Positions 8,389 through 22,955 of a DNA stretch of 22,955 bases are shown piece after piece (the stretch's first letter is position 1; the number at the start of each line of letters is the position of its first letter). A model generated the notes under the pieces. The model searched no databases, was not told the DNA's origin, and saw only the letters and a list, made by a program, of their open reading frames with translations. This stretch comes from a virus (taxonomy: Duplodnaviria > Heunggongvirae > Uroviricota > Caudoviricetes), in IMG/VR virus record IMGVR_UViG_2541047790_000011; one strand, given 5' to 3'. Position numbers and translations under genes: made by a program.

Positions 8389-8949
8389 ATGAAAAACACC
8401 GATTTTGAAATCCGCACATCTGAACTGACCGCCAGCAATAAAAAGCTGGTGGGGTATGCCGTTCGCTGGAACAGCCTTTCAGAAATTATCTGGGACGAAT
8501 TCCGCGAACAGTTCACGCCGGGGGCTTTTGCTGACTATCTGGCGACGGGTAATGATGTGCGCTGCCTGTATGAGCATGACTATACCCAACTGCTGGGGCG
8601 CACCAAATCCGGCACTCTGGTACTGACTGAGGATAACACCGGGTTACGTTTTGAACTGACACCGCCGGATACCCAGCTTGGAAAAGATGTGCTTACGCTG
8701 GTGGAGCGTGGCGACATTACAGGAATGAGCTTTGGTTTTCGCGCATTATGCGAGGAGTGGAGTATCGCGCAAAAACCGTATCTGCGTACCGTAACCGCCG
8801 CTGAACTCCGTGAAATCACAATAACGTCGATGCCTGCTTATCCAGAATCTGGCGTGGAGATTGCCCACCGTTCGTTGTTTGCACAGCACCCTGAATTACG
8901 TCCGACAGGAAATAATCTTCATCGCTGGTCTGAGCTGGCGGGGTTGTGA
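8389..8949 (+). CDS. Prohead (head maturation) protease, HK97 family
   Basis: 186-aa product with motifs typical of HK97-type prohead proteases (GYAVRWN, GAF, CLYEHD, GMSFGF, MPAYPESG). GGAG 8 nt upstream of the ATG. Confidence 0.85.
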   Translation: MKNTDFEIRTSELTASNKKLVGYAVRWNSLSEIIWDEFREQFTPGAFADYLATGNDVRCLYEHDYTQLLGRTKSGTLVLTEDNTGLRFELTPPDTQLGKDVLTLVERGDITGMSFGFRALCEEWSIAQKPYLRTVTAAELREITITSMPAYPESGVEIAHRSLFAQHPELRPTGNNLHRWSELAGL

Positions 8950-8950
8950 T

Positions 8951-10165
8951 ATGTGGTGGCCTTTTAGTCGTAAAAAAAGCGAGCAGCGTAACCTGTCCAT
9001 TGATGATTTTCTGGCGCTGTCCGGCGTACCGAATACCGGATCCGGAGAATATGTTTCTGCCGGGACGGCTGAATCATTGCCTGCAGTGATGAATGCGGTT
9101 TCTGTCATCGCTGAGGCGGTGGCCACGATGCCGTGTTATCTGTATCTGGTACGTAATGACAAGGGCAGGGAGGCGCGGGAATGGCTGGACAGTCACCCGG
9201 TAGATATTCTGCTGAATGAGCAGCCTAATTCGTGCCAGACACCTTACCAGTTTAAACGCACAATGATGCGTCACTGCCTGCTGAACGGTAACGCCTATGC
9301 GGTTATTGAGTGGGGGCAGGACGGGCAGCCAAAATCACTTCATCCTTATGCGCCGGGGTGTGTTGTACCGGAACGCACAGGCGCACACAAATACCGCTAT
9401 ACCATCACCGAACCCTGTACAGGAACGGTGCGCACGTATTTACAGGAAGAAGTTCTGCATCTCCGCTATGCCTCGGATGATGGCTTTCTGGGGCGTTCCC
9501 CCGTCACGATTTGCCGTGAGGCGCTGGGGCTTGGCCTTGCTCAACAGCGTCACGGAGCCAGCATTATGAAAGATGGCATGATGGCGGCAGGGATTATCAC
9601 GTCAGGCGAATGGCTGGACGGCGTGAAAGGTAAACAGGCATTGGATGCTCTGGAACGCTACAAGGGGGCGAAAAATGCCGGAAAAACGCCAATCCTTGAA
9701 GGGGGCATGGATTACAGGCAACTGGGAATGAGTAACCAGGATGCGGAATGGCTGGCCTCCCGTCGCTTCTCCATTGAAGACATCGCCCGCATGTTCAACG
9801 TATCGCCTATTTTTCTGCAGGAATACAGCAACAGCACCTACAGCAATTTCAGCGAGGCAAGCCGCGCGTTTCTGACCATGACAATGCGCCCGTGGCTGGC
9901 GAACTTCGAACAGCAAATCAAGGCCGCTTTGCTGGTGGCTTCTCCCGTACCTGGTACCCGTTATCTGGTTGAGTTTGATTCAGCCGATTTATTACGCGCC
10001 ACACCCACCGAACGTTATGCCACGTATGAGAAAGGGATTAAGAACGGGATCATGAATCCGAACGAAGCCCGTGAGCGTGAGGGTATGCCGCCGCGTGAAG
10101 GTGGTGATGAGTTCAGCCAGGCATGGAAACAGACTGTGGAAATTAAAGGGAGAAAAGATGAGTGA
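8951..10165 (+). CDS. Phage portal protein, HK97 family
   Basis: About 405 aa from the ATG at 8951, immediately after the protease stop. Size and conserved-looking segments (for example EDIARMFNVSPIFL) fit portal proteins. The ORF track start at 8861 overlaps the protease. Confidence 0.85.
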   Translation: MWWPFSRKKSEQRNLSIDDFLALSGVPNTGSGEYVSAGTAESLPAVMNAVSVIAEAVATMPCYLYLVRNDKGREAREWLDSHPVDILLNEQPNSCQTPYQFKRTMMRHCLLNGNAYAVIEWGQDGQPKSLHPYAPGCVVPERTGAHKYRYTITEPCTGTVRTYLQEEVLHLRYASDDGFLGRSPVTICREALGLGLAQQRHGASIMKDGMMAAGIITSGEWLDGVKGKQALDALERYKGAKNAGKTPILEGGMDYRQLGMSNQDAEWLASRRFSIEDIARMFNVSPIFLQEYSNSTYSNFSEASRAFLTMTMRPWLANFEQQIKAALLVASPVPGTRYLVEFDSADLLRATPTERYATYEKGIKNGIMNPNEAREREGMPPREGGDEFSQAWKQTVEIKGRKDE

Positions 10166-10460
10166 AGCCAAAATTACACCTGATGAAGTCAGGGCACATC
10201 TTCGACTTGATGATGATTTATCCGGTGAAGGCGAACTTCTGAAAATGTATACCGATGCGGCGCTGGAAGCCTGCCAGAAGCATATCGGGAAACGTTTTGA
10301 AGACGGGCTGGAATTTACCCCGGCAATGCGTGTTGGTTGCCTGATGTACATCGCTTTCCTGTACGAGAACCGGGAAGCGGTTTCACCAGTGGAGCACTCG
10401 GAACTGCCTATGGCTATTTCTGCGCTCTGGTCAGTTTATCGTGACGTAGGGGTGTACTGA
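10158..10460 (+). CDS. Head-tail connector / adaptor protein (gp6-like)
   Basis: About 100 aa starting MSEAKITPDEVRAHLRLDDDLSGEGELL, which is the characteristic N-terminus of gp6-like head-tail connectors. AAGGGA upstream; overlaps portal end and HNH start. Confidence 0.65.
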   Translation: MSEAKITPDEVRAHLRLDDDLSGEGELLKMYTDAALEACQKHIGKRFEDGLEFTPAMRVGCLMYIAFLYENREAVSPVEHSELPMAISALWSVYRDVGVY

Positions 10461-10900
10461 TGCCGTGGCAACCATTAAGGCGATGCACTGAGCCTGGCTG
10501 TAATAAGCGCGTGAAGTCCGGCAAGTGTGAAGAGCACAGGCGGGCTGCATGGCGTGCAGAGGATGCCAGACGGGGACACCGCCGCGCGCGCGGGTATTCC
10601 CGACAGTGGGACAAATACCGCGCCCTGTACCTGAGCAAAAACCCGTTATGCGTGAGTTGTCTGGCTAAGGGGATTTATACGCCAGCTCTTGTGGTGGATC
10701 ACATCATTCCCATCAATGGCGGCGGTGATGTTCTCTTCTGGCCTGAGTGGAACCACCAGGCATTGTGCCAGACGTGCCACAACCGTAAGACGACACGGGA
10801 AGATCCCGCCACGAAAGCGAACCGTAAGGCGGGCATGTATCGCGATCAGGAAGAACGGGCGGCACACCGTAACGACTGGATGTATGGCGATGATGACTGA
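10460..10900 (+). CDS. HNH endonuclease (terminase-associated)
   Basis: 146-aa product with cysteine clusters and the HNH core (VVDHIIPINGGG ... NHQALCQTCHNRKT). Lies immediately upstream of terS/terL, as in cos-packaging HK97-like phages. Confidence 0.85.
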   Translation: MPWQPLRRCTEPGCNKRVKSGKCEEHRRAAWRAEDARRGHRRARGYSRQWDKYRALYLSKNPLCVSCLAKGIYTPALVVDHIIPINGGGDVLFWPEWNHQALCQTCHNRKTTREDPATKANRKAGMYRDQEERAAHRNDWMYGDDD

Positions 10901-11188
10901 ACAGGAGCAAAACAGGCTGATACGTGGGTTGATAAGGCAGCGTGACACATGGAAGACACAGGAGACAGGGCACAAAGCCAACAGGACAGGGCGCACAAAA
11001 CGCACCACAGCGAAGCGATTAACCGACCGTGACCGCGAGGTCATGGAATGTTTTCGCAATCGCTGGTGAGGCCGTCAGAGGGGGTGGGGGTGGTTTTCAG
11101 GACGAAACCGTCCCTGCCGGACACCGACCGCCTCCCCAAATTTTTATGCACGGGAATTTTTTGAAAAATAATCTGACGAAAAATAAGC

Positions 11189-11545
11189 ATGGCAAGACCA
11201 CCGAAAGCCCCCGCCTACCTGGATGATATCGCCGTGAAGCAGTGGCGGGAAAAATCGCGGCAGCTTGCGGAACGGGGAGACCTGACCCCCGCCGACTGGA
11301 GCAATCTGGAACTGTATTGCGTCAACTACTCCATTTACCGGAAAGCCGTTGCAGACCTTGCGGCGCGCGGGTTCAGCATTGTTAACAGTCAGGGCGGCGA
11401 GAGCAGAAACCCCGCATTAAGCGCAAAATCCGACGCTGAAAGAGTGATGATAAAAATGGCCTCCTTGCTCGGTTTTGACCCGATAAGCCGCCGTAAAAAT
11501 CCACCGGAAACAGAAGAAGAGGACGAGCTTGACCGCCTGGAATAA
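11189..11545 (+). CDS. Terminase small subunit (P27-like)
   Basis: 118-aa product whose pattern (W---L-ERGDLTPAD---LELYCV-YS-YRKA ... acidic C-terminus) resembles P27-family small terminases; immediately precedes the large terminase. Confidence 0.75.
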   Translation: MARPPKAPAYLDDIAVKQWREKSRQLAERGDLTPADWSNLELYCVNYSIYRKAVADLAARGFSIVNSQGGESRNPALSAKSDAERVMIKMASLLGFDPISRRKNPPETEEEDELDRLE

Positions 11546-13190
11546 GTACGCAGAAGACGTAAAAACGGGCAAAATTCCGGCCTGTAAACGGCTGAAACAG
11601 GCCGTTAAACGGTACTTTTCGGACCTTGAAAGCCCCCTTTACACGTTCGATCGTGAGGTTGTGGAGCGGTTTATTGCCTTTTCCAGGGTGTGCGCGCACG
11701 TAAAAGGGCCGATGCGTGGCAGACCCATTGAGCTGGAGCCGTGGCAGCAGTTCGCCTTTGCGTGCATCCTCGGCTTTAAGGTTAAGGCCACCGGACGGCG
11801 CAAATACACGAGCGCCTTTATCGAAGTGCCGCGCAAAAATGCGAAATCCACGACCGCCGCGATTCTGGCTAACTGGTTTCTGATTATGGAGAACGGTCAG
11901 CAGGATATCTACACCGCAGCGGTGAGCCGTGACCAGGCGCGGATCGTCTTTGATGATGCGCGTCAGATGTGCCTTTTATCCCGACCGTTACGCAGGCGGG
12001 TGAATATTCAGGCGCATAAGGTGATACACCCGAAAACCAACAGCCTGTTAAAGCCACTGGCAGCAAAAGCGGCAACCATTGAGGGGACAAACCCGAGTCT
12101 TGCCATTGTGGATGAATATCACCTGCACCCAGACAACGGGGTTTATTCCGCACTTGATATGGGGATGGGCGCACGTCCCGAAGGGCTGTTATTTGCCATT
12201 ACCACATCGGGCAGTAACGTCGTTTCAGCCTGTAAGCAGCACTATGATTATTGCTGCCAGATCCTGGACGGCGAAGAGGTCAACGATTCAATTTTTGTAC
12301 TGATTTACGAACTGGACGACGAAAACGAGGTTGATGATCCGGCGATGTGGATAAAGGCTAACCCTAACATCGATGTTTCCGTCGATCGTGAAAAACTGGC
12401 CTCAACCATCCAGAAAGCGCGGGGTATTCCGTCGCAATGGGTGGAAATGCTCACCAAGCGATTCAATATCTGGTGTCAGGGGGCTACGCCGTGGATGGGT
12501 AACGGTGCATGGGCGGAGTGTGCCGGAACGTTCGCGGAGGCGGATTTATACGGGCAGGAGTGCTACGCGGGGCTGGACTTATCATCAACCAGCGATATTT
12601 CCAGCGTGTGCTATGCCTTCCCGGTCGGTAAAAAGATTATGCTGGTTTCCCGTCACTATCTGCCGGAATTTCAGCTACAGAATCCCGCCAATAAAAACCG
12701 CGCCATCTATCGCCAGTGGGTAAAGGCGGGCTGGATACGCACAACACCGGGTGACTGCATTGATTATGACCGTATCCGTGATGACATCATGGCGGATGCA
12801 GAGAATTTCAATATCAGGCTGGTGGGCTTCGATACATGGAACGCCACGCACCTGAGGACGCAGTTACAGGGCGCAGGATTTGAGGTGGAGCCGTTCCCGC
12901 AAACCTACCTCAGATTCAGTCCGGCGGCGAAATCGTTCGAAGTTTTTGTTAACCGGAAGGTGATTGTGCATCGTGGTGATCCGGTGCTGGCCTGGTCAAT
13001 GAGTAATGTTGTGATGCAGAGTGACGCGAACGCCAATATCAAGCCGAACAAGAAAAAATCATCCAACAAGATAGACCCGAGCGTTGCGGCGCTGATGGCG
13101 TTTGGCACATTCCAGGCAGAGCACGAGGACTTTGCATTCGATATGAGCGACAGCCACAAAGAGCGGCTTGCGGCGTTTGATGGGGTATGA
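11529..13190 (+). CDS. Terminase large subunit
   Basis: 553-aa product with an N-terminus typical of Terminase_1-family large subunits (TAWNKYAEDVKTGKIPACK), an ATPase region and a C-terminal nuclease region. The only in-frame start near the N-terminus is TTG at 11529, overlapping terS; the start codon is uncertain. Confidence 0.85.
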   Translation: MTAWNKYAEDVKTGKIPACKRLKQAVKRYFSDLESPLYTFDREVVERFIAFSRVCAHVKGPMRGRPIELEPWQQFAFACILGFKVKATGRRKYTSAFIEVPRKNAKSTTAAILANWFLIMENGQQDIYTAAVSRDQARIVFDDARQMCLLSRPLRRRVNIQAHKVIHPKTNSLLKPLAAKAATIEGTNPSLAIVDEYHLHPDNGVYSALDMGMGARPEGLLFAITTSGSNVVSACKQHYDYCCQILDGEEVNDSIFVLIYELDDENEVDDPAMWIKANPNIDVSVDREKLASTIQKARGIPSQWVEMLTKRFNIWCQGATPWMGNGAWAECAGTFAEADLYGQECYAGLDLSSTSDISSVCYAFPVGKKIMLVSRHYLPEFQLQNPANKNRAIYRQWVKAGWIRTTPGDCIDYDRIRDDIMADAENFNIRLVGFDTWNATHLRTQLQGAGFEVEPFPQTYLRFSPAAKSFEVFVNRKVIVHRGDPVLAWSMSNVVMQSDANANIKPNKKKSSNKIDPSVAALMAFGTFQAEHEDFAFDMSDSHKERLAAFDGV

Positions 13191-13480
13191 CGAGAATGAG
13201 CGAAACCGAACTACTAAAAATAATCCGCCGTGTTACCGGAGCCAGCCAGACAGCAGACAAACAGGAGGCCACGCAGCCGGACAGCGTGATAGCCGAAAAT
13301 TACGCGCGTGTGGTGGCTGAGGTGATGCGCCGTGACGGTATTGAGCTTAACGGCGTGGATATGCGCAACATACGAACCAGAGTCCTTGAGTTGCTGGCAT
13401 ACCGTCGCCGTTCTCAACAACGGAGGGAGAGCGCGAAAAATACTTATCAGTGGAAGAAGCCGGAACGGTTGCGGCGGTAA
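13187..13480 (+). CDS. Hypothetical protein
   Basis: 97-aa ORF whose start overlaps the terL stop (ATGA); last gene before the island boundary region. Confidence 0.45.
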   Translation: MTRMSETELLKIIRRVTGASQTADKQEATQPDSVIAENYARVVAEVMRRDGIELNGVDMRNIRTRVLELLAYRRRSQQRRESAKNTYQWKKPERLRR

Positions 13481-13593
13481 CTTGCAGATATTCCCGATAA
13501 CGTAAAATTGCGTTGGCTGGCAGAGTGCAAATTTGCACGATGGCCTAACCCATTGATTGTTTCGGAAACCTCAATTTGAGGAGGCCGGACAGC

Positions 13594-13628
13594 GTGACGG
13601 AGGGTGACAACCAGTGACACGCCGTGAC
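13594..13628 (+). repeat. Four GTGAC direct repeats at exact 10-bp spacing (candidate integrase arm-type or packaging-protein sites)
   Basis: GTGAC at 13594, 13604, 13614 and 13624, phased by one helical turn, in the non-coding stretch between the last satellite gene and clpS. Confidence 0.4.
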
Positions 13629-14406
13629 AAAAAGACGGTTTAACCATCCATTAAAAATCGACGTGATTTTGTGCTTTCCGTATGAGGTGGCCAGCGTCAT
13701 TTTTTAGTGAGAAATTCTGGTCAGGGGCGTTGGCTGAATGGTTATTTTATCGTGCCCATGCACAGGGAGGGGGCGGGTAAAATCTCTGGAGGTGATGCCT
13801 GTCAGGACCGCCGCCTGACCCTTCCTCACATCGCCGCAGGTTCGAAAACTTTTTTTGTGTCAGGTGCGCACGGAATTGATAGATAAAACCTATATTAAAA
13901 AATCACGGAAGCCGTGCCATTGCTGGAGCAGTCAAAAATTCCACATCTCACGGCAGGCAAAAAAAGCGAATTTTGGGCCAGTTGAGGATAAAAAAGGGCT
14001 CACTAGTTTTGCACATCCTGGTATCGGGGTCGTCAGCCTCCCGCCAGTAACTAGGTAACTAATCACGCTGGTGGGCATGATGCCGATGCCGGGATCTCGG
14101 TATCGGTTTATCTGTGATCATCCACCAGCTTGATGACAGATAACAGGGAGTCATAACGGTTAAAGCGTGTTGATCTTTGTTCGTGGTTGTTCGATATTGT
14201 TCGTAAAGCGGTGTAGTTAATGGTGTAGTTAATTTCGCTGTTTTTGACGAGCTTATCATTTGCAACGCAATGAAAAACAAAGACTAATTAACAAAATGCT
14301 ATAAATGATAGTTATCTATCATGTGGAGTAGATTGGTCAGGCAAATAAGCTCTTGTCAGCGGCAGGGCGTTCTGCCGATAACCGTAACCGAAGATGATAA
14401 CTGACA

Positions 14407-14727
14407 ATGGGTAAAACGAACGACTGGCTGGACTTTGATCAACTGGCGGAAGAAAAAGTTCGCGACGCGCTAAAACCGCCATCTATGTATAAAGTGATAT
14501 TAGTCAATGATGATTATACTCCGATGGAGTTTGTTATTGACGTGTTACAAAAATTCTTTTCTTATGATGTAGAACGTGCAACGCAATTGATGCTCGCTGT
14601 TCACTACCAGGGGAAGGCCATTTGCGGAGTCTTTACCGCTGAGGTTGCAGAAACCAAAGTGGCGATGGTGAACAAGTACGCGAGGGAGAATGAGCATCCA
14701 TTGCTGTGTACGCTAGAAAAAGCCTGA
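14407..14727 (+). CDS. clpS: ATP-dependent Clp protease adaptor ClpS
   Basis: 106-aa product [43 protein letters not shown] matches E. coli ClpS as recalled; immediately upstream of clpA. Confidence 0.95.
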
Positions 14728-14757
14728 ATGCAGGCATAAAAATTGGGGGAGGTGCCT

Positions 14758-17034
14758 ATGCTCAATCAAGAACTGGAACTCAGTTTAAATATGGCTTTCG
14801 CCAGAGCGCGCGAGCACCGTCATGAGTTTATGACCGTCGAGCACTTGTTACTGGCGCTGCTCAGTAACCCATCTGCCCGGGAGGCGCTGGAAGCGTGTTC
14901 TGTAGATTTGGTTGCGCTCCGTCAGGAACTGGAAGCCTTTATTGAACAAACCACACCCGTTCTGCCTGCCAGTGAAGAGGAGCGCGACACACAGCCGACG
15001 TTGAGTTTTCAGCGTGTACTGCAACGTGCGGTCTTCCATGTCCAGTCCTCCGGTCGCAATGAGGTTACCGGTGCAAACGTTCTGGTCGCTATCTTTAGCG
15101 AACAGGAGTCGCAGGCGGCATATCTGTTGCGCAAACATGAAGTCAGCCGTCTCGATGTGGTGAACTTTATCTCTCATGGCACGCGTAAAGACGAGCCGAC
15201 ACAGTCTTCTGATCCTGGCAGCCAGCCAAACAGCGAAGAACAAGCTGGTGGGGAGGAACGTATGGAGAATTTCACGACGAACCTGAATCAGCTTGCGCGA
15301 GTGGGCGGAATCGACCCACTAATTGGTCGTGAGAAGGAGCTGGAGCGTGCTATTCAGGTTCTCTGCCGTCGCCGTAAAAACAACCCGCTGCTGGTGGGGG
15401 AGTCTGGTGTCGGTAAAACCGCGATTGCGGAGGGGCTTGCATGGCGAATTGTTCAGGGCGATGTGCCGGAAGTGATGGCTGACTGTACGATTTACTCTCT
15501 CGATATCGGTTCCCTGTTAGCGGGCACAAAATATCGCGGCGACTTTGAAAAACGTTTTAAAGCGTTGCTCAAGCAGCTGGAGCAGGACACTAACAGCATC
15601 CTGTTTATTGATGAGATCCACACCATTATCGGTGCGGGTGCAGCGTCTGGTGGCCAGGTCGATGCGGCTAACCTGATTAAACCGTTGCTCTCCAGCGGTA
15701 AAATCCGCGTAATTGGTTCGACAACCTATCAGGAGTTCAGCAACATTTTCGAGAAAGACCGTGCTCTGGCGCGTCGCTTCCAGAAAATTGATATTACTGA
15801 ACCGTCAATCGAAGAAACTGTTCAAATCATCAATGGCCTGAAACCGAAGTATGAAGCGCACCACGACGTGCGTTATACCGCAAAAGCGGTGCGTGCGGCG
15901 GTAGAGCTGGCGGTGAAATACATTAACGATCGTCATCTGCCGGATAAAGCGATTGATGTTATCGACGAAGCGGGCGCTCGCGCACGTCTGATGCCGGTAA
16001 GCAAACGCAAGAAAACCGTTAATGTGGCGGATATTGAATCCGTGGTGGCCCGTATTGCACGCATTCCAGAGAAGAGTGTTTCTCAGAGTGACCGCGATAC
16101 CCTGAAAAACCTCGGCGATCGCCTGAAAATGCTGGTCTTCGGTCAGGATAAAGCCATTGAGGCGCTGACTGAAGCCATTAAGATGGCGCGTGCAGGTTTA
16201 GGTCACGAACATAAACCGGTCGGTTCGTTCCTGTTTGCCGGCCCTACTGGGGTCGGGAAAACAGAGGTGACGGTACAGCTTTCGAAAGCGTTGGGCATTG
16301 AGCTTCTGCGCTTTGATATGTCCGAGTATATGGAACGCCATACCGTCAGCCGTCTGATTGGTGCGCCTCCGGGATACGTTGGTTTTGATCAGGGCGGTTT
16401 GCTGACTGATGCGGTCATCAAGCATCCACATGCGGTGCTGCTGCTGGACGAAATCGAGAAAGCGCACCCGGACGTGTTCAATATTCTGTTGCAGGTGATG
16501 GATAACGGTACGCTGACCGATAACAACGGACGCAAAGCGGACTTCCGTAACGTGGTGCTGGTGATGACCACTAATGCCGGGGTACGGGAAACTGAGCGCA
16601 AATCCATTGGTCTTATCCACCAGGATAACAGCACCGATGCGATGGAAGAGATCAAGAAGATCTTTACACCGGAATTCCGTAACCGTCTCGACAACATTAT
16701 CTGGTTCGATCATCTGTCAACCGACGTGATCCATCAGGTGGTGGATAAATTCATCGTCGAGTTGCAGGTTCAGTTGGATCAGAAAGGTGTTTCTCTGGAA
16801 GTGAGCCAGGAAGCGCGTAACTGGCTGGCCGAGAAAGGTTACGACCGGGCAATGGGCGCACGTCCGATGGCGCGTGTCATCCAGGACAACCTGAAAAAAC
16901 CGCTCGCCAACGAACTGCTGTTTGGTTCGCTGGTGGACGGCGGTCAGGTCACCGTCGCGCTGGATAAAGAGAAAAATGAGCTGACTTACGGATTCCAGAG
17001 TGCACAAAAGCACAAGGCGGAAGCAGCGCATTAA
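14758..17034 (+). CDS. clpA: ATP-dependent Clp protease ATP-binding subunit ClpA
   Basis: 758 aa from [24 protein letters not shown], with two AAA+ modules (Walker A GESGVGKT and GPTGVGKT). GGGGGAGG precedes the ATG at 14758; the ORF track start at 14743 is 5 codons upstream. Confidence 0.95.
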
Positions 17035-17057
17035 TCTGATTGTCTGGTAGGTTGGTG

Positions 17058-17096
17058 AAGTCCGTAATCTCGTCAGGGGTTACGGACTTTTTATTT
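17058..17096 (+). terminator. Rho-independent terminator of clpA
   Basis: Stem aagtccgtaa (17059-17068) / ttacggactt (17080-17089), followed by a T-run. Confidence 0.6.
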
Positions 17097-17246
17097 ATGG
17101 GGGGAGGAGGTTCAGACCCTTTTTTTGATGATGATGGTAAGTTATTGATAATTAGTGCTGCGGGTAGGTAAGGATAAAAAAGGGTGGCAGCAGGAGATTG
17201 AGATGGTTTTGCTTTATTAACAACGGGCTAAACGTGTAGTATTTGA

Positions 17247-17377: not shown

Positions 17378-17465
17378 TGGCGGTGAGGGGGGGATTCGAA
17401 CCCCCGATACGTTGCCGTATACACACTTTCCAGGCGTGCTCCTTCAGCCACTCGGACACCTCACC
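17378..17465 (-). tRNA. serW: tRNA-Ser (anticodon GGA)
   Basis: Reverse complement reads GGTGAGGTGTCCGAGTGGCTGAAGGAGCACGCCTGGAAAGTGTGTATACGGCAACGTATCGGGGGTTCGAATCCCCCCCTCACCGCCA: 88 nt with long variable arm, GGTTCGAATCC T-loop, anticodon GGA and encoded CCA. Confidence 0.93.
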
Positions 17466-17830
17466 AAATTGTTTTTTTGCCTGACCTCATGGGGGGCAAC
17501 GGGGCGCTACTATAGGGAGTTGGAATAAAACGGTCAAGAAGAATTTTTATGATAATTATTGTTTGCTCATACTGTAAACAAGTTGTGCAGTATATCTACA
17601 TCTGATGCGCCGCGCGATAAATAAGCCGCAATCCGTGAGATAAATGGACACAGTGCGGCTTTTCAGATACGGAAAAGGAATTACAGATTATCAGTCGTAA
17701 GCAACCCACGCTTACTGGCAAGGATGGTTTACAATGCTGAAAGCGCCTCCCGGCAATACCGCCAATCATCACTCAAACAGAAAAAATTATTGCTCATGGT
17801 TCACTCCGGTAATGAATCGTTTTACAGGCG

Positions 17831-18424
17831 TCATTCGGTCATGGAAAGATTGCTGATTTCGGTAATCCCGGCAATTTCCTCGCTGACGGATTTCAGTTCG
17901 ATTTCCAGCTTGGTGCGTTCGTTGACCAGCGCAGCTACGGTCTTACGGCGGTCTGCCAGTGACGGAAGGTTGTCATTGCCCCACGCCACGCTTTTATCCT
18001 TTTTGAGCGCTTCGGTCAGGCGGGTGGCGACCACATCCGGGAAGAAAAAGCATAACTTACGCATAACCGTCATCCCGACATCAGCCAGGGGGACATTCCC
18101 GCTCAGTCCCACCAGACGGAACAGACCAGAAATATCACCATTCTCATTTTCCAGATTACCCCAGCGTTCGGCGTTCCCTTCACTGCCGGAACCGTTGCAA
18201 AGAGCAAGCTTGAATGACTGATATTCTTCCTGCCCGAATCGCTCAATATATTCAGGAATAAAGGAACAGTAATCATTAAGCGATAATGGCATATCCTGTA
18301 ATGTGGTTATTTCACTGTTAATCTCTCCAATTCGGCGGGAGAGCTTTTCTTTCTGCTCATTCAGGGAGGCAAGATTATTTTTAACGGCGTTCAGTGCTTC
18401 GATAAGGGAAATAACAGGTTTCAT
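17831..18424 (-). CDS. Hypothetical protein (third gene of Mor-headed operon)
   Basis: 197 aa from MKPVISLIEALNAVKNNL; the start lies 1 nt after the upstream gene's stop. Coiled-coil-like N- and C-terminal segments; no recognised family. Confidence 0.5.
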   Translation of the reverse strand: MKPVISLIEALNAVKNNLASLNEQKEKLSRRIGEINSEITTLQDMPLSLNDYCSFIPEYIERFGQEEYQSFKLALCNGSGSEGNAERWGNLENENGDISGLFRLVGLSGNVPLADVGMTVMRKLCFFFPDVVATRLTEALKKDKSVAWGNDNLPSLADRRKTVAALVNERTKLEIELKSVSEEIAGITEISNLSMTE

Positions 18425-18425
18425 T

Positions 18426-19040
18426 TTAATAACTCCAGATGAAAGGCGTGGTGAGGGCGAGCGCTTCAGAATAGGAGACATTGCAGGCTGCACTTACGTC
18501 CTTTATTAAAAGGTGCTGTGCTGCCCTCTGACTGTCTGCTATGCCGTCAAACTCTGAAAAATGAACGTGTGATTCATTGTGATAAAAGCAAACCGGGTAA
18601 CAGCTTTCCATAAATTCTACCTGCGCCAGTCCCTTTACTGCTGGAGGCTGTGAGCCGAGAAAACCGATATGCTGAAGATACCAGGCACCGATTCCTGCCG
18701 GGTTGTTCGCTTCGCCGGGTCTATAAAATGCCGCAGACACTTTCCTGTAACGCCCTGCGCGTACCAGTCCCAGCAGGGTTTCATCAGGCTTAACCAGCGC
18801 GAAAAGCCTGCCGTTTTTACTTATCAGCCCAGTTGTTTCACCATAAGATGGGCTGTTGCTGGCCGGATGTCCAATACACAGCGGCGCACCATAACCCGCA
18901 CGATGATAGCCGTTATAGGCTGCCGCCATGTTGTCGATATCCTCGTCGGAAAAGGCAATTTCCTGCCCAGCCATCGTGATATGCGTTCCCGCCCGGAATA
19001 TCTCGATAGTTTTCCAGTTGCCAATATCGATATCTTTCAT
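18426..19040 (-). CDS. Hypothetical protein (second gene of Mor-headed operon)
   Basis: 204-aa ORF tightly coupled to both neighbours. The N-terminus (W-TIEIFRAGTHI--AGQEI-FS-EDIDN-AAAYN ... PLCIGHP) loosely recalls Mu-like prophage protein I / DUF-type phage proteins; this is a weak, unverified impression. Confidence 0.5.
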   Translation of the reverse strand: MKDIDIGNWKTIEIFRAGTHITMAGQEIAFSDEDIDNMAAAYNGYHRAGYGAPLCIGHPASNSPSYGETTGLISKNGRLFALVKPDETLLGLVRAGRYRKVSAAFYRPGEANNPAGIGAWYLQHIGFLGSQPPAVKGLAQVEFMESCYPVCFYHNESHVHFSEFDGIADSQRAAQHLLIKDVSAACNVSYSEALALTTPFIWSY

Positions 19041-19041
19041 T

Positions 19042-19569
19042 TTAAATTACCCCATATTTCGCATCGCGCTGTATTTTATTTTTCTTGCGTTCGGCGGCTA
19101 TAATCTGATAAATACACTGAATGGAACGCTTGTATTTTTTTGATAGTTCAAAAATAGAGATACCCTGATAAAAATCAGCCAGTATTTTTGAGTTCCTGTC
19201 GAAAGTGTTTTTTGATGCGCCCATAGGGATATATATATTCCCCCTGAAAAATGTATTCCTGAGACATTCAGTGATGGCAGGAGAAAGTTTTTCGGCTTGC
19301 GAACAGAGGTAAGGTATGGTTCCTAATGTCTGCTCAATAGATTCAGTCAGCTCCTGTAGGAAGCGAACTGCCTTAGGTGCTCTTTCTCGGTGTTCAGCCA
19401 TATACCCCTGGCAGCCACCAAGGTTATCAGAGATACCCAACACAATATGATTAGCCGCACTGCAGGACTGTTGCCGTGAATACCCTTTGTTGATCAGAAA
19501 CACTTCTATAGCATCGCCCATTGCCCCCAAAGTATCGGATGAAGCATACAATCCTTCTCTTGTAATCAT
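19042..19569 (-). CDS. Mor-family transcriptional activator-like protein
   Basis: C-terminal region RGNIYIPMGASKNTFDRNSKILADFYQGISIFELSKKYKRSIQCIYQIIAAERKK parallels the Mu Mor/C activator HTH region (G-VYIP-G ... R---I---F-G-----L---Y------IY-I---RK). GAGGTG lies 5-6 nt upstream of the ATG at 19569; the ORF track GTG at 19575 is an alternative. Confidence 0.6.
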   Translation of the reverse strand: MITREGLYASSDTLGAMGDAIEVFLINKGYSRQQSCSAANHIVLGISDNLGGCQGYMAEHRERAPKAVRFLQELTESIEQTLGTIPYLCSQAEKLSPAITECLRNTFFRGNIYIPMGASKNTFDRNSKILADFYQGISIFELSKKYKRSIQCIYQIIAAERKKNKIQRDAKYGVI

Positions 19570-19809
19570 AATCACACCTCGTCAACGATAAATATGCGCA
19601 CATAAAGCCTTTATAAAGCTTTATGAGGTGCATTACTGGTGTCATTCCATGATGCACACCACCAACAACCAAAAACGCCTTACAGAGCATTTCAATGTGT
19701 GTTATTAATGTGGATTAAGAATATGGTTTTGGGGCGAGAATGTTTTTTAATGTACTTTAGATATGACGAAGCCCCTCAAAGGAGGGGCGAGGCGGAAAAC
19801 TATTTATAA

Positions 19810-20088
19810 CTATTCCTTACTCTCCTGATCAAGACGATTACCTATCAGGTTAATCATTGCCATTGCATCAGATAGCAGGATACTGTTAACAAGTGCTAAG
19901 GGCGTCTGTGTTGATTTATCATCAACGGCAACAGAAAGTTCATCATTCAGGCGACGAACGGCCTCAAGACGGCTAAAGGCGGCTTCCCATATTTCTGTAC
20001 TCGGGGCATCAGCATTAACAAACAAAACATCGTAAGACGTTCCCTGAGACTCATGAGGACAGGCTATGAAATTAGCAGTAGCTTTCAT
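19810..20088 (-). CDS. Hypothetical small acidic protein (second gene of 2-gene operon)
   Basis: 92-aa ORF; its start overlaps the upstream gene's stop (ATGA at 20085-20088). No recognised family. Confidence 0.5.
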   Translation of the reverse strand: MKATANFIACPHESQGTSYDVLFVNADAPSTEIWEAAFSRLEAVRRLNDELSVAVDDKSTQTPLALVNSILLSDAMAMINLIGNRLDQESKE

Positions 20089-20564
20089 TTTGCAGTCCTC
20101 CGGTTAATTATAAATTTATTATAAATTTCATAACTTGCGGCATTCAGTCCTGGACTGTATTTATCTGCCAGTGAACAGGCAATGAATTCTTCAATCGATT
20201 TAGTCAGTATATCAAGCTCAGTTGTTCCGGAATAACGCAAGGCCACTCGAAATAATTCTCGGCAGTATGTTTTTTTATGGTCAATATTTTGTAACTGCTG
20301 TTGCGGTATATCACGACGTTCAAATATATTAACAAATGCATTAAGCGGGAAGCTATGATTTGCCTGCGGATATTGCTCATAGGAAAACACCACAGTATTA
20401 CCGTTGCATTCTTTAACAATTGCATTCATACCGCTGTTAATTTCAATATACCACTCTCCTATACATGGAGGATTGATAGCTTCGCTCTGTGCCTTGATTA
20501 AAGGTAAGCGGATAGTATCCACTTGGTTTGTTGCAACTGAATCGTTAGACTTGTCGTTAGCCAT
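20085..20564 (-). CDS. Hypothetical protein (first gene of 2-gene operon)
   Basis: 159 aa from MANDKSNDSV with AGGA 8 nt upstream. AT-rich codon usage by eye. No recognised family. Confidence 0.55.
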   Translation of the reverse strand: MANDKSNDSVATNQVDTIRLPLIKAQSEAINPPCIGEWYIEINSGMNAIVKECNGNTVVFSYEQYPQANHSFPLNAFVNIFERRDIPQQQLQNIDHKKTYCRELFRVALRYSGTTELDILTKSIEEFIACSLADKYSPGLNAASYEIYNKFIINRRTAK

Positions 20565-20597
20565 GACTGTTATCCTACACATAACGGTTTTTGGTTA

Positions 20598-20701
20598 GGC
20601 CATAGCAAGTGCTCGCAACATTTGTTATGGCCGTTTCTTTGGCCCTTTCCCTGTGATAAGGTATAGACCTAACAAGTAAACACTAAGCCATAGGTCTATA
20701 C
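20598..20701. promoter_or_regulatory. Divergent promoter region with two inverted repeats (candidate operators)
   Basis: IR1: ggccatagcaa (20598-20608) / ttgttatggcc (20622-20632), one mismatch. IR2: gtatagacct (20661-20670) / aggtctatac (20692-20701), perfect, 21-bp spacer. Located between the minus-strand 2-gene operon and the plus-strand RHH gene. Confidence 0.35.
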
Positions 20702-20752
20702 ATGTCAACTATCTTGAGAGATAAAAGCCAAAAAGGGGCAGGGAAAGCCCCC

Positions 20753-20893
20753 ATGTTTAACGTTAGAATATCGCCAGATTTGAAAGAACAGTTTGAAATA
20801 CAAGCAAAAAAAGAAGGTGTTAGCTTGGGAAACTGGCTCAAGGAACTTGGCAGGGCGGAACTAAAACGTAAGGGGATCGAGCCGAAAGGGTGA
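20753..20893 (+). CDS. Ribbon-helix-helix (CopG/Arc/MetJ-like) DNA-binding protein
   Basis: 46 aa from MFNVRISPDLKEQFEIQAKKEGVSLGNWLKELGRAELKR: a beta-strand followed by two helices is the RHH signature. AGGGA lies about 9 nt upstream of this ATG. The ORF-track start at 20702 has no Shine-Dalgarno and abuts IR2. Confidence 0.55.
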   Translation: MFNVRISPDLKEQFEIQAKKEGVSLGNWLKELGRAELKRKGIEPKG

Positions 20894-20919
20894 TGTTTTA
20901 GTCTCCCTGTGTTTGATTA

Positions 20920-21753
20920 AAAGCGAAATCGCTTTCACATTTAAAGTTCAAGATAGCCAATGCCATCACCAAAGCGGACAGCGCTGTCCGCTTTTCATCA
21001 GTAAAAACCACATATTTACGCCAAAACGCTCAACGTTGAGCGCTACGTACCCCGGCAAAAGCGCAAGCGTCTGCGCTTTTGGTAACAAGCAATCAGCATT
21101 TAAATGCGGACAACGTTGACCGTTTTGAGGAATCAATGTCGGCTGAGCAAAAACGACAACGTTGTCGTTTTTAAAACGGCAAGCGCTTACCGTTTCAGAT
21201 TATCGAGGCGGTAAGAGTTTACCGTTTGGTGTCAATTATGTTCAATAAGCGAAAACGTTTTCGCATTTTCTCACCTAACGCGGCAAACCTTCTTTGTCCT
21301 AGATGGAAAAACGACAGCGCTGTCGTTTCTAATCCGGGGTTCCAAACCGCTCAGCGCTGAGCGGTTCTGTGGCTTTCTTACAATCCAAATCCGCCAACGT
21401 TGGCAGATTTGCAAATATCACATATGATTGATGGTCCCGAATCACAAATGTCCCAGCGCGGGGATATTTCAAGTAGTTCAATCATTTCATGCGCTGGCAG
21501 TCATCTCCAAAACTGCGAACGCCTGCCCTTTCAGTACAGTTTGGTAATATATATTGGTAAGCTTTACTTGTAGAAATATAAAACTCCAAAAGCGCCAGCG
21601 CTGGCGCTTTGTAAGGCCAGCAATATCATTCCCAGCGCTGGAATACTAAAAGGCGGATTCCTGCATCTTAATTTGAGATGGAATCTCATGGCAATCCAGT
21701 GTTAACGTAGGGTTTTAGCCAGTACTCACGACTTGAATATGCCAGCGCTGGCA
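20920..21753. repeat. Array of at least 15 sequence-diverse palindromes with shared architecture (A-run, CG-rich arms around a CAGCGCTG or CAACGTTG centre, T-run)
   Basis: Perfect palindromes read directly: 20971-20994 (24 nt), 21027-21042 (16), 21149-21172 (24), 21249-21264 (16), 21309-21328 (20), 21345-21366 (22), 21393-21404 (12), 21589-21610 (22), 21632-21641 (10), 21740-21753 (14). Near-perfect: 20920-20935, 21057-21080, 21107-21122, 21174-21195, 21209-21224. No convincing ORF covers the array. Confidence 0.6.
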
Positions 21754-21990
21754 CATTTGAAGTCTGGTAACATCAATAATCTAATGACACCTGATGTAAT
21801 TTTGAACCCTGAACTGGAATCAACCCCAAATTTAATGGCAACAGCTATCAGCCAGATTACTGATGAACGTGACCTGCTGAACCAATTACTTGACCAAGCA
21901 CAGATGGCCGATGCATTCGAGCAATTTTCCCGAACGGTTCGGACTTCTAAACTGGCTTTTGTGAAGGAAAACAAGGGCTTTGTTGAATAA
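21739..21990 (+). CDS. Hypothetical ORF whose 3' end runs into the IS903 terminal inverted repeat (possibly insertion-truncated)
   Basis: About 83 aa from ATG 21739 (MPALAHLKSG...); the last codons (GGC TTT GTT GAA TAA) are IS903 end sequence. The start codon sits inside the 14-bp palindrome 21740-21753. Coding status uncertain. Confidence 0.3.
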   Translation: MPALAHLKSGNINNLMTPDVILNPELESTPNLMATAISQITDERDLLNQLLDQAQMADAFEQFSRTVRTSKLAFVKENKGFVE

Positions 21991-22955
21991 ATCAGATTTC
22001 GGGTAAGTCTCCCCCGTAGCGGGTTGTGTTTTCAGGCAATACGCACGCTTTCAGGCATACCTGCTTTCGTCATTTTGTTCAGCGCTCGTACCAGGGCCAT
22101 AGCCTCTGCAACCTGACCATCGTAGTCACGCAGTGTCAGTGAACCTCCGAACAGCTGTTTTACCCGGTACATCGCCGTTTCCGCTATCGAGCGACGGTTA
22201 TAATCTGTTGTCCATTTCCACCGCGCATTACTCCCGGTCAGCCGCTGATTCGCAACAGCACGGTTACGGTCTGCATATTCACCGGGCCAGTAACCCGCGC
22301 CTTTTCGGGGCGGGATAAGCGCGCTGATTTTCTTACGCCGCAGTTCATCGTGACAGAGCCGGGTGTCGTAAGCGCCGTCTGCCGATGCTGCCCTGATTTT
22401 TCTGTGAGTCTGCCGGATAAGACCCGGGAAGGCTTCTGAGTCCGTCACATTGTTCAGCGACAGGTCTGCACAGATGATTTCATGTGTTTTGCTGTCAACT
22501 GCCAGATGCAACTTTCGCCATATACGACGGCGTTCTTTGCCGTGTTTTTTGACTTTCCATTCGCCTTCACCAAAGACCTTCAGCCCGGTGGAATCAATCA
22601 CCAGATGCGCGATTTCACCTCGGGTGAACGTTTTGAAACTGACATTAACCGACTTTGCGCGCTTGCTGACACTGGTGTAATCCGGGCAGCGCAACGGAAC
22701 ATTCATCAGTGTAAAAATGGAATCAATAAAACCCTGTGCAGCCCGCAGGGTCAACCTGAACACGCGTTTAATGACCAGAACGGTGGTGATGGCGAGATCA
22801 GAATAGCGCTGAGGTCTTCCCCGTGATGAAGGCGTTGCCGACTCATACCAGGCCTGAATAGCTTCATCATCCAGCCAGAAAGTTATGGAGCCACGGTTGA
22901 TGAGGGCTTTATTGTAGGTGGGCCAGTTGGTGATTTTGAACTTTTGCTTTGCCAC
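21976..22955 (-). mobile_element. IS903 (IS5 family), partial - runs off the right window edge
   Basis: Terminal inverted repeat GGCTTTGTTGAATAAATC begins at about 21976; the internal transposase is recognisable as IS903 from memory. The ~1.06-kb element would end beyond base 22955. Confidence 0.88.
22032..22955 (-). CDS. IS903 transposase
   Basis: 307-codon ORF starting MAKQKFKITNWPTYNKALINRGSITFWLDDEAIQAWYESATPSSRGRPQRYSDLAITTVLVIKRVFRLTLRAAQGF, near-identical to the IS903 transposase as recalled. Start codon (GTG in this frame) is at the very last bases of the window. Confidence 0.9.
   Translation of the reverse strand: MAKQKFKITNWPTYNKALINRGSITFWLDDEAIQAWYESATPSSRGRPQRYSDLAITTVLVIKRVFRLTLRAAQGFIDSIFTLMNVPLRCPDYTSVSKRAKSVNVSFKTFTRGEIAHLVIDSTGLKVFGEGEWKVKKHGKERRRIWRKLHLAVDSKTHEIICADLSLNNVTDSEAFPGLIRQTHRKIRAASADGAYDTRLCHDELRRKKISALIPPRKGAGYWPGEYADRNRAVANQRLTGSNARWKWTTDYNRRSIAETAMYRVKQLFGGSLTLRDYDGQVAEAMALVRALNKMTKAGMPESVRIA

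Follow-up and report, generated by a model that had tools for sequence, protein, structure and literature searches.

The closest described system is clpA of Escherichia coli K-12, whose two products are ClpA84 and ClpA65. A 65-kDa ClpA arising from an internal start was reported by Seol et al. (1994, J Biol Chem 269:29468; 1995, FEBS Lett 377:41), papers cited in PMC8666677, PMC9663308 and PMC13245402. According to those titles and to PMC13245402, the short form inhibits ClpAP (protease Ti) in casein degradation and blocks the autodegradation of ClpA. The start has been known since 1994 and was re-detected in 2026, when the N-terminomics study TRAINSPOTTER listed clpA AUG169 among its detected proteoform pairs. 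The row for clpA (b0882) in TRAINSPOTTER Table S1 gives the alternative start ATG169, a 13-residue N-terminal peptide (residues 169-181) and a 590-aa proteoform, together with Ribo-RET evidence labelled 'Stringer extra'. The main text of the Ribo-RET paper (Meydan 2019) gives no more than three genes as internal starts known before, and clpA is not mentioned there. Laboratories purifying ClpA routinely mutate the site to Thr or Leu, and M169T is described in papers from the Sauer and Baker laboratories as a change that 'helps overexpression of full-length ClpA'. In the PDB, ClpA carries M169L in 1KSF and 1R6B and M169T in 7UIV and related entries, while the chains of 6UQE and 6UQO start at residue 169.

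A related system is E. coli clpB. ClpA and ClpB are both class-I Clp/Hsp100 double-ring AAA+ proteins, and in both an in-frame start behind the N-domain gives an isoform that lacks this domain and can co-assemble with the full-length protein. ClpB is, however, a different paralogue, and its short form is reported in distant phyla including mycobacteria, whereas the site in clpA occurs only in part of Enterobacterales. The internal start codon of E. coli clpB is GTG, not ATG. In the Ribo-RET paper, clpB is among the verified internal starts, and ClpB isoforms of M. tuberculosis are described in PMC6168691. The mechanism is shared with infB (the IF2 isoforms), mrcB, cheA and speA, in which a Shine-Dalgarno (SD) sequence and a start codon within the coding sequence likewise give two proteoforms, but those proteins are unrelated to ClpA and other domains are removed from them.

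Here we analysed a stretch of 22,955 nt, called the window below. It is E. coli chromosomal DNA, all bases of which are 100% identical to strain KE21 and others. Compared with K-12 clpA, the gene, the codon Met169, the 60-nt context and the predicted 65-kDa product are all identical; the 60 nt printed in Table S1 of TRAINSPOTTER are those of window positions 15232-15291. The site itself does not differ, and the window strain differs only in flanking mobile elements, one upstream of clpS and one after serW. The site is almost certainly the internal start already described for E. coli clpA, at which translation begins in the frame of the gene. An earlier note on this DNA had proposed the same identity from the sequence and had named N-terminal sequencing of the short ClpA and initiation profiling as checks; both kinds of evidence turned out to be published for K-12, as the nascent peptide and the Ribo-RET support at ATG169 in the table cited above.

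Anatomy of the internal start

As shown in Table 1, clpA lies immediately downstream of clpS in the window. The host gene is a clpA orthologue encoding a class-I Clp ATPase with an N-domain, D1 and D2. The encoded protein is 100% identical to RefSeq WP_000934041.1, its Pfam matches are Clp_N, AAA, AAA_lid_9, AAA_2 and ClpB_D2-small, and the PDB match is also ClpA.

Table 1. Positions of clpA, clpS and the elements of the internal start in the window.
Feature	Position	Strand	Remarks
clpS	14407-14727	+	immediately upstream of clpA
clpA coding sequence	14758..17034	+	758 codons and stop; full-length ClpA 84.2 kDa; from the ORF list and RefSeq annotation
Primary clpA SD, GGGGGAGGTG	14745..14754	+	core GGAGG at 14748-14752; the ATG at 14758 follows after a 5-nt spacer
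ClpA N-domain coding region (residues 1-143)	14758..15186	+	missing from the short form; from PDB constructs and Pfam Clp_N
Flexible N-domain-to-D1 linker coding region (residues 144-168)	15187..15261	+	3' end is also the internal ribosome-binding site
Internal SD, GGGGAGGAA	15250..15258	+	core GGAGG at 15252-15256; from direct reading and string search
Spacer AACGT, 5 nt	15257..15261	+	third base of codon 167 differs between species; Arg168 CGT invariant
Internal initiation codon ATG (Met169)	15262..15264	+	in frame with clpA
Nested in-frame ORF, short form ClpA65	15262..17034	+	residues 169-758; 590 aa; 65.4 kDa (computed)

Read as codons, the internal SD takes in the third base of Gly164 (GGT), all of Gly165 (GGG) and Glu166 (GAG), and the initial GA of Glu167 (GAA). 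The earlier note had recognized this motif but placed it at 15251-15258; direct reading and a string search showed that it begins one base before that, the 9-mer having been assigned to eight positions. The in-frame ATG that it had given as Met169 was confirmed by translation and by codon arithmetic from the annotated start, (15262-14758)/3+1 = 169. The primary ribosome-binding site of clpA and the internal site have the common layout GGGGAGG-N5-ATG.

Met169 is located past the N-domain and ahead of D1. N-domain constructs in the PDB span residues 1-142, 1-143 and 1-146 (1MBU, 1K6K and 1LZW), so that the domain ends near residue 143-146, and in Pfam the matches of AAA type start from residue 187 (AAA_16) and residue 211 (AAA). 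Among 80 genomes, the linker between the two varied in length and sequence, except for its last codons in Enterobacterales. In the short form every AAA+ module matched by Pfam (D1 and D2) is kept and Clp_N is lost; its computed mass agrees with the 65-kDa species in the titles of Seol et al.

We propose that the site works by ordinary SD-directed initiation within a coding region. The 3' tail of 16S rRNA in the 30S subunit would pair with GGGGAGG (15250-15256), in an mRNA that is predicted to be unusually unstructured around the internal start, and the AUG five nucleotides on would be set in the P site. Translation would then stay in the reading frame of clpA up to its usual stop codon and yield the short form, which retains both AAA+ rings and the ClpP-docking parts and is without the N-domain and nearly all of the linker. 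The adaptor ClpS and some substrates bind to the ClpA N-domain. Judging from its domain content and from established knowledge of ClpA, the short form would still form rings and dock to ClpP, and would lack ClpS binding and N-domain contacts. Since the N-domain binds ClpS and some substrates, the likely effect of the short form, on its own or in hexamers shared with the full-length protein, is that ClpAP acts less on substrates that depend on the N-domain or ClpS. For annotation, the single clpA gene has two proteoforms, the short one predicted to be unable to dock ClpS or to use N-domain-dependent recognition. What we infer here concerns the physiological role and the wild-type stoichiometry of the short form; initiation in vivo was observed by others, through the peptide and Ribo-RET in K-12.

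Signal strength, synonymous constraint and mRNA structure

The predicted anti-SD duplex at the internal site had an energy of -11.4 kcal/mol. When the 759 ATGs of the two strands of the window were compared, this ranked fifth, and the annotated clpA start came first (-14.5 kcal/mol). Only codon 1 and codon 169 fell below -5.1 kcal/mol among the 15 Met codons of clpA; the energies of the other 13 internal Met codons ranged from +1.0 to -5.1. None of the in-frame GTG or TTG codons of clpA had an SD at or below -8. The bare motif is nevertheless not above chance. The window holds 6 matches to GGAGG-N4-9-ATG, whereas dinucleotide shuffles gave 3.65 ± 1.89, with at least 6 matches in 17 of 100 shuffles. 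Among the six matches only two are annotated starts, and three are clearly not gene starts. Recoding AGGEER synonymously with clpA codon usage gave an equally strong SD about 13% of the time (P about 0.13). The signals above chance at this site are synonymous conservation across species and low local structure.

Two more GGAGG-spacer-ATG motifs were seen inside clpA, one on the plus strand at 15429-15443, which is out of frame and opens an ORF of 13 codons, and one on the antisense strand at 15051-15037. Both are probably chance occurrences, because 3.65 matches are expected per window.

Synonymous constraint was examined in 13 taxa of Enterobacteriaceae and Erwiniaceae, counting only degenerate codon columns with an invariant amino acid. 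Over the whole gene, 63 of 607 such columns (10.4%) were codon-invariant. Gly165 (GGG) was the sole invariant column of 46 for Gly; Glu166 (GAG) was among 9 of 49 for Glu, and Arg168 (CGT) was among 2 of 48 for Arg. Joint invariance of these three codons has a naive expectation of about 2e-4. From the SD to the ATG, the only base that varied among the 13 taxa was the third position of codon 167, which lies in the spacer. In Serratia, GGEDR is encoded as GGA GGG GAA GAC CGT, so that GGAGG is formed from other codons, 10 nt upstream of the ATG; this recoding looks as though the signal is being maintained, and not any one choice of codons. As judged from these alignments, the SD and the start codon are under purifying selection beyond the needs of the protein.

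We also considered invariance within the species as evidence and rejected it. Of 5426 E. coli genomes, 5420 had the same 40-mer at the site; an upstream control 40-mer was equally invariant (5402 genomes), and a downstream one was polymorphic (1135). As the upstream control is as invariant as the site, the within-species data carry nothing specific to it.

The strongest synonymous constraint of the entire gene was found elsewhere, at codons 5-18 (14770-14810), where two 20-nt runs (gene nt 13-32 and 34-53) were nucleotide-invariant across the 13 taxa. Structure of the initiation region, a binding site for a small RNA or a protein, or coupling to clpS could be the cause.

The fold of positions -25 to +15 around the internal start was -2.6 kcal/mol, compared with a clpA mean of -8.3 ± 3.5, which places it in the least structured 5% of the gene; the corresponding folds of the annotated starts were similar, at -3.3 (clpS) and -5.1 kcal/mol (clpA). 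In all 13 SD-bearing taxa the site was less structured than the average of its own gene. In a 100-nt fold of the E. coli sequence, the AGG of the SD was paired to a downstream CCU, with a z score of -1.37. RNAalifold on the 13 taxa gave a weak hairpin of -11.7 kcal/mol, with a covariation term of -0.28 and one weakly supported compensatory pair. Such a consensus hairpin, predicted without covariation support, could partly sequester the SD. A conserved regulatory RNA structure was rejected on account of the weakness of the hairpin and a z score of only -1.37.

Distribution of Met169 and alternative explanations

The comparative set consisted of 80 ClpA loci from a species-level genome collection and 120 metagenomic loci, to which Salmonella, Citrobacter and Trabulsiella genomes were added by exact-protein look-up. 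The taxonomic boundary was traced by a DNA-pattern scan of metagenomes together with a cluster look-up. Codon 169 was ATG in all Enterobacteriaceae and Erwiniaceae sequences examined, and Met169 was found in 114 of the 118 metagenomic loci readable at this codon. The best 120 database protein matches all contained GGE[ED]R-M; they are all Enterobacteriaceae at least 96% identical and so of no use for the boundary. Cluster look-up added Serratia, Hafnia, Pectobacterium, Brenneria, Pantoea, Tatumella and Mixta to the carriers. Met169 occurs in five families of Enterobacterales. Hafnia keeps ATG169 with a weak SD (-6.0) and local structure above average, which shows that a strong site does not always accompany Met169. 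Photorhabdus (Morganellaceae) reads GGT GAA GAT CGT CTG, with an AGGUG-like partial SD and without ATG. Beyond Enterobacterales, in Photobacterium, Vibrio, Alteromonas, Pseudomonas, Legionella, xanthomonads and Betaproteobacteria, residue 169 is Leu, rarely Ile, and anti-SD energies were weaker than -10 kcal/mol throughout and mostly near background.

Two records in the set may be mislabelled. CP169086.1, titled Enterobacter hormaechei B17-3, has a clpA encoding a protein 100% identical to that of E. coli and is identical over the region examined. CAZICZ010000002.1, a metagenome-assembled genome titled 'uncultured Klebsiella sp.', encodes a ClpA of 66% identity with Leu169.

Three other explanations of the motif have to be weighed against internal initiation. 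A Gly-Gly-Glu-Glu stretch favours purine-rich, SD-like codons, and a Met could simply happen to come next without meaningful initiation. The motif counts and the recoding frequency given above are in keeping with this. Chance does not account for SD codons that stay synonymously invariant across 13 taxa while 90% of comparable codons in the gene vary, nor for the low structure at the site, and it is largely refuted by the published nascent N-terminal peptide, which together with the Ribo-RET evidence falls at exactly codon 169; laboratories have also mutated M169 to suppress the short product. We regard it as extremely unlikely. A second alternative is a requirement of the protein itself, by which GGE(E/D)RM would be needed in the linker or at the entry to D1 and no RNA signal would be involved. 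The presence of this peptide in all of the best 120 proteins and in several Enterobacterales families fits such a requirement, which leaves the invariant third codon positions unexplained. ClpA with M169L or M169T serves as functional 'wild-type' in structural and biochemical work, most other Proteobacteria have Leu at this position, and elsewhere the linker varies greatly; we regard a purely protein-level cause as extremely unlikely.

The remaining alternative is that the SD mainly stalls elongating ribosomes at the boundary of the N-domain and D1 for co-translational folding, initiation at Met169 being a by-product. The position of the motif, in the flexible linker past residues 1-143, does coincide exactly with a domain boundary, and conservation of the SD by itself fits pausing or initiation alike. 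Against pausing, the ATG 5 nt downstream co-occurs with the SD and is replaced by Leu or Ile wherever the SD is absent, and little structure between -25 and +15 is typical of starts and not of pauses. SD-induced pausing in profiling data has itself been disputed. Initiation has been directly observed by others through the N-terminal peptide, and we consider pausing as the main function very unlikely; the two roles are not mutually exclusive, and pausing could coexist with initiation.

Taking the site as an internal start, its distribution suggests a history. It is present in Enterobacteriaceae, Erwiniaceae, Pectobacteriaceae and Serratia and, weakly, in Hafnia, and is absent from Photorhabdus, Vibrionaceae, Pseudomonas and Betaproteobacteria. 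On this comparative pattern there is about an even chance that the start is a lineage-specific innovation, in which a Leu-to-Met change at residue 169 and SD-forming synonymous codons were fixed within Enterobacterales and then held by purifying selection at the RNA level; an adaptive, clade-specific role would be implied. If so, a ClpA without its N-domain would be adaptive in this clade, for example by determining how much ClpAP escapes redirection by ClpS. The restriction to part of Enterobacterales, combined with synonymous selection, argues that the short form is functional there. With the compensatory recoding in Serratia, these data offer a modest argument for physiological relevance as opposed to an overexpression artefact. 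We found no prior account of the Enterobacterales-restricted distribution in the searchable literature, and our addition to a known site, itself modest, is this lineage-restricted and selectively maintained distribution.

Islands flanking clpS-clpA

An island of about 14.5 kb (window 1-14300) is located between yljB and clpS and resembles a phage satellite. It encodes a tyrosine integrase, an HTH regulator, Icd-like proteins, a primase, SSB, a major capsid protein, an HK97 prohead protease, a portal protein, a head-tail connector, an HNH protein and the small and large terminase subunits. We take this gene set to resemble that of capsid-forming PICIs. The right junction lies near 14301, which leaves about 106 nt before the clpS ATG; the island replaces the native sequence upstream of clpS-clpA, and their promoter might be affected.

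A second accessory island (window 17378-22955) adjoins serW, the tRNA-Ser(GGA) gene, on the minus strand at 17378-17465. Besides hypothetical genes it contains those of a Mor-family activator, a HicB antitoxin and an IS5 transposase. It occupies the place where infA comes closer in other strains. When the clpS-clpA region (window 14400-17100) was matched to complete E. coli genomes, 5 of 5428 matches were on plasmid-labelled records, and in strain S3 an ISEc52 was inserted within the clpS-clpA region.
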